Below are positions 5,520 to 42,822 of a DNA stretch of 64,000 nucleotides, piece by piece. The notes below the pieces were generated by a model, which did no database searches, had not been told where the DNA came from, and was given only the letters and a program-made list of their open reading frames with translations. The translations under genes were made by a program, and so were the position numbers. The stretch lies in the IMG/VR virus record IMGVR_UViG_3300017971_000203; one strand, written 5' to 3'. The DNA is from a virus. Within the stretch, counting starts at the first letter, position 1; every line of letters begins with the position of its first letter.

Positions 5520-5717
5520 CTACTCATCTTCGATGATGCGAAGGTTCTCGACCGGCTCACTCCATCGAAGCGCATTTCCGTTCCACAGCGTGCCTTCGAC
5601 GTCGACGACTGTGCCACCAGCGATGCGGCGAGGGCGTCGCAGGATTGTCACGATGCCGCAATGGATCGCGAGGAACTTCGAGCCGGGCTGGATCTGAGTG
5701 CATTTTGGGCGTGCCAT
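5520..5717 (-). CDS. hypothetical protein
   Basis: Start after CCAACGGAGGGG hairpin leader. Confidence 0.65.
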   Translation of the reverse strand: MARPKCTQIQPGSKFLAIHCGIVTILRRPRRIAGGTVVDVEGTLWNGNALRWSEPVENLRIIEDE

Positions 5718-38000: not shown

Positions 38001-39206
38001 TCACCAGCTTCCATCGCGAACGGTCTCTGTGTCGACCACCTTCGGGGTGCCGCAACTGACGACCTCCTCGACCGGGGCGCTCGAATCGTCCTGTTGACCC
38101 TCTAAGCCCTTGTCCTTGTCCATCTCGGAGATGGTCTTCACCTTGCCCAGCGTCTCGGAGGCCTCCACGTCACCAAGGTCCTTGTCGTAGAGGTCGAACC
38201 AGGGGATCCCGGCCGCGAAGTACTCGTCCTTGCCGATGGGGCTCGGGGGCGGCGCTTCGCCGGTGATCTGCTGGTACATCTCCGCGTTCACCAGGTGGAC
38301 GAACACGCGCTGCTTGCAGTCCTGGTCCCAGACATGGACACCGTGGGGGTCGGGATAGACCTGCTGACGCATCGAGCCGCCCGCACCCATCCCCATCAGA
38401 GCCGCCTTCGGGGCGTTCTCCTGGAAGCTCCTCTTCGCGTGTCTCCGAATCACCGTGGGCTTGATGGCGTGCCTCATGAAGCCCTTGGCAACGCCTTCAG
38501 GGGCTCCCGCAGGCGCAGTGCTGCACAGGACCGCGCTCTCGAGGGTGTGCCCGCCGCTGGTCTTCACTTCCCCGGAGTAGCTCTCGAAGCCGTCGTCGCC
38601 GTCCCAGCCGAGGCTCTGCCCGGAGGCTCCGCCAGCAGTCGCAAAGCCGCCCTTCGCGACACCGCGGGAGCGCGTGCCTCTGCGCTTCTTGGGCTTCGGG
38701 AAGTGCTCTCGCTTGCCCGGGTAGACGGCCAGCTGCAGGCCGCCGTGCTTCTCCTCACCCGTGACCTGACCTTCCACGGTATAGCCCATGCCCAGGGGCA
38801 TCGCCACGAACTGGCTGACCTTGCCCTCTTCGGACTTGATGCCGTCGATCCACTTCTGGGGCGGAGCCACGAGGTAGTCCTGCTTGTCCTCGCTGAGACC
38901 GTCCTTCCAGGGCTCACCCGTGATGGCGTCGATCTTCCCGACGCCAACCTTCACGGCGCAGGGCGCGTGCGTGCGCAGTCCGAACTGGATCCACATCGCT
39001 TCGCGCTGGTGGAGCGGCAGGAACACGCCGCCCTTCTCCACCCAGCTGGGCGGCACCTTGTCCTTGTAGTCGTCGATGCGCTTGAGAGGGAAGCGTCCGA
39101 CCGAGCGTGGCAGGGGGTAGGTCTTTCCGTCCTCCGGGAGCCGGAAGGTTCTGTGGAAGACCACGATCAGGTTCTCTGTGTGCAGTTCATTGCCGATGAC
39201 TTTCAT
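38001..39206 (-). CDS. conserved hypothetical protein
   Basis: FHRTFRLPEDGKTYPLP..GRFPL..GGVFLPLHQREAMW..QFVAMPLGMGYTVEGQVTG; start overlaps the end of cassette 14. Confidence 0.8.
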   Translation of the reverse strand: MKVIGNELHTENLIVVFHRTFRLPEDGKTYPLPRSVGRFPLKRIDDYKDKVPPSWVEKGGVFLPLHQREAMWIQFGLRTHAPCAVKVGVGKIDAITGEPWKDGLSEDKQDYLVAPPQKWIDGIKSEEGKVSQFVAMPLGMGYTVEGQVTGEEKHGGLQLAVYPGKREHFPKPKKRRGTRSRGVAKGGFATAGGASGQSLGWDGDDGFESYSGEVKTSGGHTLESAVLCSTAPAGAPEGVAKGFMRHAIKPTVIRRHAKRSFQENAPKAALMGMGAGGSMRQQVYPDPHGVHVWDQDCKQRVFVHLVNAEMYQQITGEAPPPSPIGKDEYFAAGIPWFDLYDKDLGDVEASETLGKVKTISEMDKDKGLEGQQDDSSAPVEEVVSCGTPKVVDTETVRDGSW

Positions 39207-41640
39207 GTCGTCTCCTCGTAGTGGCGGGGCCTCCGCCCCTGCAAACTCGAAAGCTCAAGCGGGTTACGAAGTCGTCTGTGGCCGCAAAGGAAGAGCGGTG
39301 CCCCGAGTGGAACTGGATATCGAGACCGCCGCGAAAGGTGCTGCCCATGACGATTCTGTGTGTGTCGTCCCAGTAGTGGACCCGGATGACATCTTCAGGA
39401 TCCGGGGCCTCAGTGAACTCGAGAGCCGAGAAGCCCTGAGACAGCTCTCTCCAGCGGAACGTGCCCACATCACCCCCGTGCGATCCGGAAGCCGACATCG
39501 CTGCCTGCTCCGATCTGGTGTTCGTCGAGGCGTCCATCGTGCTCGAGGAAGTCTCGGTCGTGGGTGCGCACGTAGATGACATTGTTGTAGCAGAAGCCTT
39601 TGAGGAGGGACTTGTAGGAGGCGGTCCGGGGCCTCGGTCCGTTCCCGAGGGGCCAGGGGTTCGGGATCTCAGGCCAAAAGTGGCGGCGATCACCCGTAGC
39701 AGATCCGGAAGCCGACGATGTCGTGAGGACTCCCTGGGTAGAAGTTCTCGTCGTGGTAGTAGTTGGTCCGCTTGTGGAGAGTGCCGTCGCTTCTGTTCCG
39801 GTCCCACCAGGACCCGCCCCGGAGACTCCAAAAGGGCGGGGCTCACCCCCAGCAGATCCGGAAGCCCGTGAAGAAGATGCCACGTGGTCGGAGGCTCCCG
39901 TTCCGTCGTCCGAGATGGATCCGGAGAGCGTTCGTGAAGCGGGAGTAGCACTCGCCTCTTCGAACGCGGCGCCGAAAGGGCGCTTACCCTCTGCAAACCC
40001 GGAATCCGATGATGTAGAGCTTTCCTGTGATTCTCCATACCGTGCTGCATCTGCCGAGGGGTTGGAAGTCCTCTGAGAACCACGAGTTCCCTCGGCACCT
40101 GCTAAAGGGCCCCTACCCCCAGCAGATCCGGAAACCTTTGCCCCAGGAGTTGTCGGCGAAAGGTTCGGAGTCACGCTTCGCGACGCTGGCGACACCTCTG
40201 AAGAGGCTGCTGGCGAAGCCTCGCCCGGTCTTGGCGACAGGGAAGACGAAGTGTCGAAAGGGCGCTCAAGTACCTCCGTCGGATCGGACGATCCGGAATC
40301 CGAGCAGCTTGTCGGACATGGTTGTGAGCCCGGTTCCCCGGGCGTTGAGACGGAGGGAGACCGCGGAGCCGCCCCCTCGACAGATCGGGATCCAGACAAA
40401 GGGCGGCGCTCACCCCCAGCAGATCCGGAAGCCGGCGCTGGTCCAGTCCCCGAACTCACGCCCCTGTCTTCGGCGGGATGCGGAAGGCTGGAGTCGCATC
40501 CAGGACCCCGCTCGGACGACCCGAAAGGGACAGCGTCCTCCTCATCCTCGGCAGATCCGGAATCCGCGCCGCTGGTGGGCCCAGCTTCGTCGTGGGGAGA
40601 AGCACTTCCCAGACAGTCGCACGCGCGCGTAGACGGCGTCGAAACACCCTCCCCGGGGCTTGCCATACGGCTCCCGCCAGGGCTCCCCGGAAAAGGGTGA
40701 TCACCCCCAACAGATCCGGAAGCCGATATGATGGGCCCGGGTCCACATGGTGCGGGGGGTCTTTCTCCCGGGTCGCAAATTGTGGGGAGGGTACGGGTGT
40801 GCTGCATCGAGCCATGCGCCCCCTCGGAGGAAGCGGTCCCGAGGAAAGGGTCAGGAGTGTCCTCCTCGACAGATCCGGAAGCCCCAGCGGCCGGCTGCTC
40901 CTCTTCCGTATCCTCTGATGGAGAGCCGTCCGAGAGCGGGGGTAAAGAACTCGATGAGGTAGATCCCCCGCTCCCCGAGTCGAAAGGGCGATCAACCTCG
41001 GGCGATTCGAAAACCCTTACCAAATGAGGAGGAGGCGAAGGGCTCGGATGACCGCTTCGCGAGGCTGGCGACGCCCCTGTAGTAGACGCTGGCGAAGCCC
41101 CGCCCGACCTTGGCGAAGGGGCTCGGTCCTCGAGCGACCCGGTCGGCCTCTGTGGTCTCTCCCCAGGGACGAAAGGGCGGCGATTACCCCTGGGATCGGA
41201 CGATCCGGAAGCCGAGGAGCGTCCCCTTGTACTCGGGGTAGCTCCCAGGGCCTCGGTGGGCGATCCGGGCTCCGTGACCAGAGGAGAGTTCCCTGAACAA
41301 GCGTCCGCCTCGGAAGTTGGCACTTCGAAAGGGCGCCGTCTACCCCCGGCAGATCCTGAACCCTGGTCGAACGGTGTAGAAGACGTAGGTCTCGAGCTCG
41401 ATGTACCAGGACTTGAAGCCCTCGGGGTGTTGGTTCCCGAGCCACTCGCGGCGGGACAATCGGAGGGGTGGGTCGGGGTAGAAAGCGCCGCGGAGAGTGA
41501 GGGATCGCCGTGCCCAAAAGGGAGCTCAACCTCGGCAGAGCCGACGCCCTCGGGGTCCGGCTCGGGCGTCTGGGACGAGGCTGAGTCTGGAGAGGGGCAG
41601 GGGCCAGTCGAGAGAGGAAGTCGTTCGATCTCGAAATTGA
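39187..41640 (-). repeat. array of about 15 alternative C-terminal cassettes, 12 headed by CCCTTTN -1 slippery heptamers
   Basis: Heptamers at 41516-22, 41327-33, 41171-77, 40982-88, 40844-50, 40691-97, 40523-29, 40397-403, 40256-62, 40103-09, 39974-80 and 39830-36; each -1 frame ends GFR(I/V)xxG-like then stop. Confidence 0.92.
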
Positions 41641-42505
41641 CCTCCGCGGGCTCTCCGCGCTGGTGCCGTTTCTTCGACGTCACCTGCCTCATGGGAGGGT
41701 CCGGCTTCTGCTCCGCCATAGTGATGTCGGGCTTCGCGTGCTTCATGTGTTCGGCGTATTCGTCCCAGCACCACTCCCAGACGTTCCCCAGGCAGTCGTA
41801 GAGGCCCCACCTGTTCGGAGCCAGCTGCCGAACCGCATGAGTCCGACCATCTGAGTTCTGGTCAAACCAGGCGATCTCTTCCAGAGACGCCTCGCGCCAC
41901 TCGACTTCGCCACCACACCGGTCGCACACCCCAATCTCGTACCGCGCACCGTCGCTGCCCGCCCTGGCGGCGTACTCCCACTCCACCTCGGACGGGATCC
42001 GGAAGCCCGGGCCCTCCTTCCACAGGTAGCCCTGCTGGCGGTCCCCGATGTACGCGGGCGGTAAACCGCAGCGCTCCGAGAGCGCGTTGCAATACTCGAT
42101 GGCGTCGTACCAGCTCACGCACTCCACCGGGCGCTCGAGAGGATTGTCGCCCTGCTGGAAGTGGCTGGGGTTCTTCCCCATCACCGCTGCGTACTCGGAC
42201 TGCGTGACCGGCGCAGAAGCCATCCAGTACGTGTTCTCGATCGTCACCTCGATCTGATGCTCGTTCCGCCACCGACCATCTTCGTCCGGCGGACTGCCCA
42301 ACACGTCCGTACCGGCAGGGATCTCCACCAGCTCCGGGATCACAACGCCCTCCAGACGTGCGAGGTCAAGGCGCGCGAGCACGTCCCCTCCCCGGCTGCG
42401 AAGCCGCAGGAACTCCCGGAGAGCCGCCTCGTCATTGTCCACCGCCAGCTTCCCCAAGCGCTCGAGCTGCCGCACGTTGGTCGTTGATTCTCTCGTTGTC
42501 TCCAC
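39470..42505 (-). CDS. FGE-sulfatase (SUMF1/C-type lectin fold) protein with frameshift-selectable C-termini
   Basis: GTG start after CCAACGGAGGGG; PVTQSEY, NPSHF, PVECVSWYDA..YCN.LS, FRIPSEVEWEYAARAG, PNRWGLYDCLGNVWEWCWD; RGGSW..GFR ending absent until the cassettes. Confidence 0.92.
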   Translation of the reverse strand: METTRESTTNVRQLERLGKLAVDNDEAALREFLRLRSRGGDVLARLDLARLEGVVIPELVEIPAGTDVLGSPPDEDGRWRNEHQIEVTIENTYWMASAPVTQSEYAAVMGKNPSHFQQGDNPLERPVECVSWYDAIEYCNALSERCGLPPAYIGDRQQGYLWKEGPGFRIPSEVEWEYAARAGSDGARYEIGVCDRCGGEVEWREASLEEIAWFDQNSDGRTHAVRQLAPNRWGLYDCLGNVWEWCWDEYAEHMKHAKPDITMAEQKPDPPMRQVTSKKRHQRGEPAEVNFEIERLPLSTGPCPSPDSASSQTPEPDPEGVGSAEVELPFGHGDPSLSAALSTPTHPSDCPAASGSGTNTPRASSPGTSSSRPTSSTPFDQGSGSAGGRRRPFEVPTSEADACSGNSPLVTEPGSPTEALGATPSTRGRSSASGSSDPRGNRRPFVPGERPQRPTGSLEDRAPSPRSGGASPASTTGASPASRSGHPSPSPPPHLVRVFESPEVDRPFDSGSGGSTSSSSLPPLSDGSPSEDTEEEQPAAGASGSVEEDTPDPFLGTASSEGAHGSMQHTRTLPTICDPGERPPAPCGPGPIISASGSVGGDHPFPGSPGGSRMASPGEGVSTPSTRACDCLGSASPHDEAGPTSGADSGSAEDEEDAVPFGSSERGPGCDSSLPHPAEDRGVSSGTGPAPASGSAGGERRPLSGSRSVEGAAPRSPSVSTPGEPGSQPCPTSCSDSGSSDPTEVLERPFDTSSSLSPRPGEASPAASSEVSPASRSVTPNLSPTTPGAKVSGSAGGRGPLAGAEGTRGSQRTSNPSADAARYGESQESSTSSDSGFAEGKRPFGAAFEEASATPASRTLSGSISDDGTGASDHVASSSRASGSAGGEPRPFGVSGAGPGGTGTEATALSTSGPTTTTTRTSTQGVLTTSSASGSATGDRRHFWPEIPNPWPLGNGPRPRTASYKSLLKGFCYNNVIYVRTHDRDFLEHDGRLDEHQIGAGSDVGFRIARG

Positions 42506-42522
42506 CGTCCCCTCCGTTGGTC

Positions 42523-42822
42523 TCAGTTCTGAAGCCGCTGTCGCTGGCCCTTGAACCACAAGCCCGAGTCCTGCTCCTTTTGGTTGTCGTAGCTCTCCAC
42601 GTCCCAGTCGGCGTGGTAGAACGTGACCCGCACGAGGTTCTGCTCCTGGTGATCCAGGTTGAGCGGAAGGTCGCGCCACGAGATGCGGCACCCATACGGG
42701 TCCTTCGCCAGACGCTCATTGATAGCCACGATCACCGGACCCAGGTCCCGCTCCTTGTTCTTCTTCCACTGCTCACGCGCACTCACTGGCGTGATTGGCT
42801 CGACTTTCTGGTTGCTGCCCAT
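42523..42822 (-). CDS. hypothetical protein
   Basis: AAGGAG RBS. Confidence 0.65.
   Translation of the reverse strand: MGSNQKVEPITPVSAREQWKKNKERDLGPVIVAINERLAKDPYGCRISWRDLPLNLDHQEQNLVRVTFYHADWDVESYDNQKEQDSGLWFKGQRQRLQN

Follow-up and report, generated by a model that had tools for sequence, protein, structure and literature searches.

How does a virus gene come to carry a dozen versions of its own C-terminal piece in a reading frame one base away from that of the gene? The question is raised by a 64,000-nucleotide (nt) stretch, hereafter the window, of the 128.9-kb IMG/VR virus record IMGVR_UViG_3300017971_000203 (CheckV completeness estimate, 69%). Its minus strand holds a long open reading frame (ORF; the 0 frame) composed of an N-terminal helical module, a scaffold of the FGE-sulfatase (formylglycine-generating enzyme) type, a read-through of about 650 residues rich in Ser, Gly, Pro, Ala and Thr that crosses an array of cassettes, and the last cassette of this array, C13, which lies in frame. 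The cassettes C1 to C12 are read in the -1 frame (Table 1). We consider it likely that they are reached by serial programmed -1 frameshifting, giving rise to about 13 isoforms with different binding tails.

The scaffold matches the Pfam profile PF03781 with E=2.6e-37 and 129 bits (cut-off 23.3) over profile positions 3-204 of 255, and the match was reproduced in the genome-level search. By this comparison the scaffold lacks the last ca. 50 residues of the FGE/C-type-lectin fold. The canonical tail (R-G-G-S-W ... R-S-A-x-R ... G-F-R) is not contiguous with the scaffold in the 0 frame; copies of it are found 12 times in the -1 frame and once, about 650 residues downstream, in the 0 frame. A hidden Markov model (HMM) of the last ca. 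44 residues of ordinary FGE domains, built from 79 unrelated metagenome homologues, was searched against the window cut into 1447 six-frame pieces. All of the top five matches are cassettes (C2, E=1.6e-5; C5, 4.9e-5; C8, 1.3e-3; C12, 1.8e-3; and C7, 0.11), with the other cassettes spread over the following ranks. Taken alone, C5 also matches PF03781 at positions 214-253 (E=1.5e-3), and in a joint alignment G-F-R is kept in all 13 cassettes, and the R-G and R anchors in nearly all of them, including C3 and C9. Because of these matches and the kept anchors, the cassettes read as alternative versions of exactly the piece that is absent from the scaffold.

That the cassettes are encoded in the -1 frame, as the original prediction held, is supported by this homology and by two further properties. 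The G+C content at third codon positions is 0.75 in the cassette frame, compared to 0.78 in the real genes of this phage, and no internal stop occurs in the roughly 600 codons of the twelve cassettes, whereas about 15 would be expected were only the 0 frame coding. Six of the twelve contain no ATG, GTG or TTG at all, and elsewhere the first such codon stands at codon 14-35, past the R-G-G anchor; independent initiation is therefore excluded, leaving a change of frame as the only access.

Further evidence comes from the paralogous cassettes C3 and C9, which had been described as duplicates under purifying selection in the -1 frame. The coordinates and peptides given for them match the sequence exactly, the 37-residue stretches compared being 41114-41004 (C3) and 40235-40125 (C9) on the minus strand. 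Their gap-free alignment spans 37 codons, or 111 bases, of which 28 differ (13 transitions, 15 transversions, scattered across all bases), with 7, 8 and 13 differences at the first, second and third positions of the cassette-frame codons. By the Nei-Gojobori method, applied to all three frames, the cassette frame has 11 synonymous and 9 nonsynonymous codon pairs and a ratio of nonsynonymous to synonymous substitution rates (dN/dS) of 0.37; the figures are 5, 19 and 1.14 for the 0 frame of the long ORF, and 1, 20 and 1.17 for the third (+1) frame. The ten synonymous changes counted originally are all present, and an eleventh (TCA/TCC) had been overlooked. In the cassette frame 28 of the 37 residues are identical, and a Fisher test on synonymous versus nonsynonymous sites yields p=0.022. 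We also simulated 28 random substitutions with the observed split of transitions and transversions (5000 runs), which leave 19.3 +/- 2.0 of 36 residues unchanged. The cassette frame retains 27 of 36, a number that none of the 5000 simulations attained, while each of the other two frames retains 17 of 36, just under expectation (P=0.95). Because no simulation matches the cassette-frame identity and the other frames fall slightly below expectation, the asymmetry is real and not a counting artefact. Purifying selection is thus seen in the -1 frame only, by dN/dS, codon counts and simulation alike; the three-frame comparison revealed neither an equal or lower dN/dS in the 0 frame nor a lack of asymmetry. 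Differences that preserve the shifted-frame protein are good evidence, at the level of sequence, that the hidden frame is used, and they amount to internal evidence of selection on that frame following a datable duplication. The pair says nothing on how ribosomes get there.

Of the dual-coding constraint that had been proposed for the array, one part holds and the other does not: the 0 frame stays free of stops, but its sequence is not conserved (dN/dS about 1.1). Dual coding is therefore lopsided. The 0 frame is held open, and it is hydrophilic and rich in Ser, Gly, Pro, Ala and Thr, while its actual sequence evolves freely.

The same pair bears on the growth of the array. In a blastn self-comparison C3 and C9 are the sole pair with homology in their bodies (118 nt, 75% identity). 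In addition, the end of C2 with the following junction (J3) matches the end of C8 with its junction (J9) at 81% over 54 nt, and nine residues of the two ends (L-L-G-F-R-I-V-R-S) are identical despite two synonymous differences. Since these tails and junctions also match, the duplicated unit was more than one cassette, and consisted of the tail of the previous cassette, the junction, and the cassette. The claim that the array grows by duplication and divergence is thereby borne out for C2-tail/J3/C3 versus C8-tail/J9/C9. All repeats in the array are direct, and the junction elements are its best-conserved DNA, with 36 nt at 97% between two junctions; Tandem Repeats Finder returned nothing. The array has expanded through the copying of cassette-plus-junction units, C3 and C9 being the youngest visible pair, after whose duplication selection maintained the -1-frame protein and, in the 0 frame, no more than its openness. 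When the cassette peptides were searched against the remainder of the phage genome, translated in six frames, only short matches came up (E of at least 1e-3), and we see no sign in these sequences that the tails copy other proteins of the same phage.

How ribosomes might enter the cassettes is suggested by the junctions. Each of the twelve carries a heptamer CCCTTTN, and relative to the 0 frame all twelve are in X XXY YYZ register. The last base is C in seven, T in three, and G and A in one each. Elsewhere on the same strand only 9 copies of CCCTTTN occur in the remaining ca. 62 kb, and the ORF has only four other in-phase heptamers, of the G/C type, a kind called poor shifters. C CCU UUU is reportedly the slippery site of West Nile virus. 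The same heptamer turns up in a preprint on -1 frameshifting in that virus (10.1101/2024.10.16.618579), and in Escherichia coli H_HH.U_UU.Y is among the most efficient -1 heptamers, C_CC.U_UU.C being a high-level shifter (Sharma et al. 2014, PMC4066793). Each heptamer has the stop of the preceding cassette 0-12 nt upstream of it. A G-rich tract resembling a Shine-Dalgarno (SD) sequence, built from the last codons of the preceding cassette, lies 4-9 nt upstream of every heptamer. The calculated pairing of these upstream regions with a generic anti-SD sequence, which may differ from that of the host, ranges from -6.3 to -12.3 kcal/mol over the 12 sites (mean -9.1), compared to a background of -3.8 +/- 2.7.

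The spacing of the heptamers (189, 156, 189, 138, 153, 168, 126, 141, 153, 129 and 144 nt) is in all eleven cases a multiple of three, for which simple arithmetic gives a chance of about (1/3)^11. Because the spacings keep to this rule although the cassettes carry stops of their own, one continuous frame must run through them. Across the array the 0 frame indeed holds no stop, against 6.8 expected from the codon usage of the genome (P=4e-4).

Table 1. Features of the scaffold-and-cassette locus in the window, from the long ORF to the following gene.
Feature	Position	Strand	Description
Long 0-frame ORF	39470-42691	minus	1073 codons counted from GTG at 42691
FGE-sulfatase/C-type-lectin-fold scaffold	41723-42337	minus	ORF residues 119-323; ends just past WEWCWDEY motif
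C0, degenerate orphan cassette	41526-41670	minus	-1 frame; R-A-R-G-G ... G-R-R-L-C-R-G-stop; upstream of C1
Cassettes C1-C12	39690-41525	minus	-1 frame; 42-63 codons each, ending G-F-R-(I/V)-x-x-G then stop
C3 cassette	40992-41183	minus	63 codons + stop; stop-to-stop segment in -1 frame; paralogue of C9
C9 cassette	40113-40265	minus	50 codons + stop; stop-to-stop segment in -1 frame; paralogue of C3
Twelve heptamers CCCTTTN	39830-41522	minus	First C at codon position 3 of the 0 frame
Single heptamers (first C, then last base)	41522 T; 41333 C; 41177 C; 40988 C; 40850 C; 40697 T; 40529 C; 40403 G; 40262 C; 40109 A; 39980 C; 39836 T	minus	
Degenerate site 13, CC[A]CTTTT	39676-39683	minus	One extra base compared to the other junctions
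C13 cassette	39470-39675	minus	In 0 frame; G-F-R-I-A-R-G then stop, the end of the long ORF
C14, fossil terminal cassette	39187-39342	minus	S-T-F-R-G-G ... S-F-R-V-C-R-G-G; former linker frame; read from sequence only
Next gene	38001-39206		401 aa; no Pfam or PHROG match

The layout is shared by relatives. The N-terminal module and the truncated scaffold are common to three proteins, namely the window's own protein (P0001), P0005 (62% identity) and P0266 (44% identity), the last being encoded at locus L243 in a different metagenome from that of the window. L243 has CCCTTTC heptamers at 5675 and 5834, 159 nt apart and both in shift register, and that part of the gene has no further in-phase heptamers. 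Its second and third sites are preceded by GGAGG and TGA. Both -1-frame cassettes close with G-F-R-F-A-R-G-G and a stop, and the final cassette is brought into the 0 frame by one extra C at the third site. The scaffold is directly followed by the first site, where the conceptual -1 product is one uninterrupted FGE domain that covers HMM positions 8-248 of 249 with 282 bits, whereas the 0-frame scaffold by itself reaches 247 bits. For the two remaining cassettes the scores are 35.6 and 18.4 bits. The first and second cassettes (4 synonymous and 19 nonsynonymous differences, against 7 and 20) are too diverged for an asymmetry to be seen, and the second and third differ by 14 synonymous and 23 nonsynonymous changes, versus 3 and 31, and 4 and 28, in the other frames. 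We regard L243 as decisive: judged from its sequence, the grammar of the array has been kept over deep divergence and recurs in a different metagenome. P0005, which was read as a protein, has P-F or P-L every 40-62 residues in its long low-complexity tail and a tail-like end segment in frame. Back-inference of its -1 frame from the protein does not discriminate, the background pass rate being 0.48-0.67.

Word-index searches found P0005 and P0266, and phmmer over 1.84 billion representatives gave P0005 as the only extended match. An IMG/VR scan with the window protein alone confirmed no relative, the array has no blastn match among 50,697 phage records, and closely spaced tails are absent from all 160 FGE loci taken from metagenomes and GTDB genomes (32-48% identity), which have single contiguous ones. 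Two public DNA runs and no RNA run contain the locus; both DNA runs give one identical 35.8-kb consensus contig with no variants, indels or rearranged joints. In both runs other contigs match short stretches at about 40417 and 41188, near junction heptamers, before running on into unrelated sequence as 255-nt loose ends. Further arrays with comparable junctions in the same community are a possible source of them.

Structure predictions were made with AlphaFold2 (AF2). For the 0-frame protein of L243 the predicted local distance difference test score (pLDDT) is 90-97 in the scaffold, 31-37 in the read-through tether of ca. 100 residues, and 82-95 in the final cassette, which is docked, although the alignment used consists of contiguous homologues and favours this outcome. 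The model suggests that a layout of scaffold, tether and tail is compatible with the fold. Its best match in the PDB is TvpA (2Y3C; E=4.7e-19), the variable protein of a diversity-generating retroelement (DGR) of Treponema denticola, followed by PvdO, CarF and the true formylglycine-generating enzymes. The latter have a catalytic Cys pair in their C-terminal part and bind copper. We infer a role in binding because the nearest solved structure, TvpA, is a non-enzymatic binding protein.

The observations are the frames, the heptamers and their phase, the homology of the tails, the asymmetry of selection, and the recurrence of the grammar in a distant relative, and from them a mechanism may be proposed. 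A constant, presumably ligand-binding scaffold of FGE/C-type-lectin fold would stop some 50 residues short of the complete fold. Ribosomes that continue in the 0 frame would meet twelve successive C CCT TTN sites, and at each a fraction would slip by -1, aided by the SD-like tract that the last codons of the preceding cassette provide. Slipped ribosomes would terminate after reading a single cassette, which supplies the missing tail (R-G-G ... R ... G-F-R), while those that never slip would arrive at the hard-wired thirteenth cassette, C13. One messenger RNA could in this way yield a ladder of about 13 isoforms of 380 to 1003 aa (counted from a provisional start at 42481) that have the scaffold in common and differ in their binding tail, the two being joined by a disordered tether, rich in Ser, Gly and Pro, of growing length.

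Several points count against this proposal. The actual shifting of ribosomes, the rates of the shifts, and the binding of different ligands by the tails are what we infer from the sequence. Isoforms with disordered tethers of up to ca. 650 residues inside a domain are unusual, and the AF2 model of the window's 969-residue 0-frame product (scaffold pLDDT 80-95) leaves C13 undocked, with linker and C13 below pLDDT 50, albeit from an alignment in which the homologue tails are scattered, so that this model is uninformative. The SD-like spacing of 4-9 nt is shorter than the ca. 10 nt of dnaX. No consistent stem-loop or pseudoknot was found downstream of the heptamers (the folding z-score is below -2 at three of the 12 sites), and an Rfam scan found nothing. 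The selection test covers a single pair over 37 codons, and its members C3 and C9 match the tail HMM weakly (E about 0.8). Under a conservative permutation of codons within the array the absence of 0-frame stops is marginal (1.95 expected, P=0.088), and the third frame is depleted of stops as well (4 versus 14.7). Finally, the population is represented by one identical contig in both public runs.

The main rival explanation, which we consider unlikely, sees a reservoir of silent cassettes. Only the 0-frame product ending in C13 would be made, and C1 to C12 would be unexpressed donors that are copied into the terminal site by recombination or gene conversion via the junctions, as in vlsE or pilE/pilS. 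The junctions, with 36 nt at 97%, could indeed provide homology for recombination; the terminal cassette is in frame, the model likewise requires an open 0 frame, and purifying selection on donors would be expected if they are periodically expressed. What such a reservoir leaves unexplained is the slippery heptamer in exact X XXY YYZ phase at every junction, the stop that each cassette has just before the next heptamer, and the SD-like tract at each site. In L243, moreover, the first cassette abuts the scaffold, and a -1 shift alone yields the canonical domain. A search of the neighbouring genes showed no recombinase or reverse transcriptase beside the locus, and the two contigs contain no rearranged joints, although they are consensus contigs. 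Change of frame at the level of nucleic acids, either by slippage of RNA polymerase at CCCTTTT or by programmed deletion of DNA, is much less probable still. The heptamer does hold short runs of C and T, and the direct repeats could mediate deletions, but deletions from junction to junction remove multiples of three and cannot move a cassette into the 0 frame, and the contigs show no indel or joint. To our knowledge, runs of 3-4 bases are far shorter than the known sites of transcriptional slippage.

We give equally little credence to the array as evolutionary debris, in which tandem duplicates of the 3' end have left the reading frame and are in decay, C13 alone matters, and the asymmetry of C3 and C9 is a remnant of a coding past. 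C0 and C14 do look decayed or orphaned, and several cassettes are weak against the tail HMM. Yet decay sits badly with a -1 frame that is open over twelve cassettes and about 600 codons, where some 15 stops would be expected, and with indels between units that are without exception multiples of three; the changes in C3 and C9 after their duplication still avoid -1-frame replacements, and the layout survives in L243, a relative of 44% identity, and in P0005. Least probable of all is the translation of each cassette as a separate mini-peptide, by reinitiation at the SD-like tract, that would complete the scaffold in trans, like the "tip mini-genes" of split genes. It is the SD-like tract ahead of each cassette that could suggest it, whereas the codons at normal start distance from that tract are CCC TTT, ATG, GTG and TTG are all lacking in half of the twelve cassettes, and in the others the first such codon comes after the R-G-G anchor.

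The ends of the array and its surroundings complete the picture of the locus. Owing to the extra base at site 13, no shift is needed for C13 to be read in the 0 frame. C14 sits downstream of the C13 stop, orphaned by that extra base, and overlaps the start of the next gene. At the other end, C0 has no slippery heptamer upstream, and the window reads PDITM where its relative P0005 has PDVPF. The G-F-R-I motif of C0 has decayed to G-R-R-L, and the cassette may exemplify decay after loss of an access site. Comparison with P0005 and the window's own protein places the true start of the ORF probably further in than its first GTG, near 42559 or about 42475. A helical N-terminal module of ca. 35-40 residues (42340-42480, minus strand) is common to the window protein, P0005 and P0266, and is modelled as three helices in P0266. 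A near-consensus promoter of the sigma-70 type (43143-43116, minus strand; TTGACA, 16-nt spacer, TATAGT; 11 of 12 matches) precedes two small genes and the FGE gene, which may form one operon; one small upstream gene weakly resembles a transcriptional repressor (phrog_4738, E=8e-5). The neighbours include a Bro-N/anti-repressor-like protein and a small repressor-like protein, and no terminator-like sites were found in the array.

Literature searches revealed no report of such a frameshift-cassette array. Programmed frameshifting is known as a means of making two proteins in a set ratio. If the proposal is true, recoding would here be put to a new use, with one ORF offering a dozen alternative sites of shifting and a different functional ending at each, and a virus would have a new way to hedge on binding targets without a change of DNA. 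For phage annotation it would mean that P0001, P0005 and P0266, each annotated at present as a single long protein that has a "low-complexity tail", have had their real products missed. Research on recoding would gain a natural series of 12 related sites in differing contexts for studying what determines the efficiency of frameshifting.

Among known systems, the -1 frameshifting of dnaX, IS3/IS911 and the lambda tail chaperone G/GT is alike in the 0-frame X XXY YYZ heptamer and in the new C-terminus that results from the shift. In dnaX an upstream SD-like tract acts as stimulator, a role for which the SD-like tracts of the window are candidates. These known cases have one site and two products, whereas the window has 12 consecutive alternative sites in one ORF and a default thirteenth tail. 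Genes with 2, 10 or 12 shifts use them as obligatory corrections towards one product, with no choice among products. Such genes are mentioned in a review (PMC5009743). The window's C CCU UUY belongs to the H_HH.U_UU.Y class that is efficient in E. coli (PMC4066793), and it differs from other bacterial and phage -1 sites in that no conserved downstream structure was found. The vlsE/vls system of Borrelia, pilE/pilS of Neisseria, and the shufflons (R64 pilV/Rci) likewise set an array of variable segments beside a constant part, with conserved repeats at the junctions. They rearrange DNA via a recombination pathway or a recombinase, and their cassettes need neither a common frame nor stops of their own. 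In the window all units keep one register, each junction has a stop, an SD-like tract and a heptamer, and no recombinase is seen nearby.

The closest parallel in fold and in the segment that varies is offered by the DGR variable proteins, TvpA (2Y3C) and Mtd of Bordetella phage BPP-1, in which the diversified segment is likewise the C-terminal ca. 45 residues from R-G-G-S-W to G-F-R. The window differs in having no template/variable repeat pair and no adenine-specific pattern of mismatches among the cassettes, and the 128.9-kb record contains no match to the reverse transcriptase profile PF00078. An IMG/VR homologue that served as positive control, L163 (2233-2697; L242, G001:C1:3459-4100), encodes an FGE-fold protein with 43% identity to the window scaffold. 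A second, Asn-rich copy of its C-terminal R-G-G-S-W ... G-F-R-V segment follows 300 nt downstream, 21 of the 32 mismatches fall at adenines of the downstream copy, and a reverse transcriptase adjoins the repeat pair (E=1.4e-20). By these features L163 is a classical DGR whose variable region is the very segment replaced by cassettes in the window. Other arrangements occur in further IMG/VR phages. L218:5001-5995 (GC 0.67) has an FGE scaffold followed by three in-frame tandem tail modules without stops between them, and its 31.7-kb record holds no reverse transcriptase. In the related phages L227:4365-5558 and L231:4515-5558, four and three in-frame tails, respectively, stand N-terminal to a scaffold that ends right after WEWC, which looks like a circularly permuted multi-tail layout with variation in copy number; no reverse transcriptase occurs in the L227 record, whose rated completeness is 100%. 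In all three the tails are in one frame and every molecule carries all of them, whereas in the window each molecule would carry one. Because of the DGR of L163 and the variants in L218, L227 and L231, "one scaffold, several tails" is a recurrent theme with several genetic implementations. We lean towards the view that the window's phage uses the ribosome itself as a generator of diversity: twelve tuned, low-efficiency -1 sites in series, an "alternative splicing by frameshift", would provide each infected cell with a fixed repertoire of about 13 lectin-fold proteins from one messenger RNA, the tails setting specificity, and the array would evolve by duplication of units and be re-wired by single-base indels. 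It would thus be a translational counterpart of DGR mutagenesis: DGRs create diversity by mutagenesis of DNA, and the window would hold some 13 hard-coded cassettes among which the choice is made at translation.

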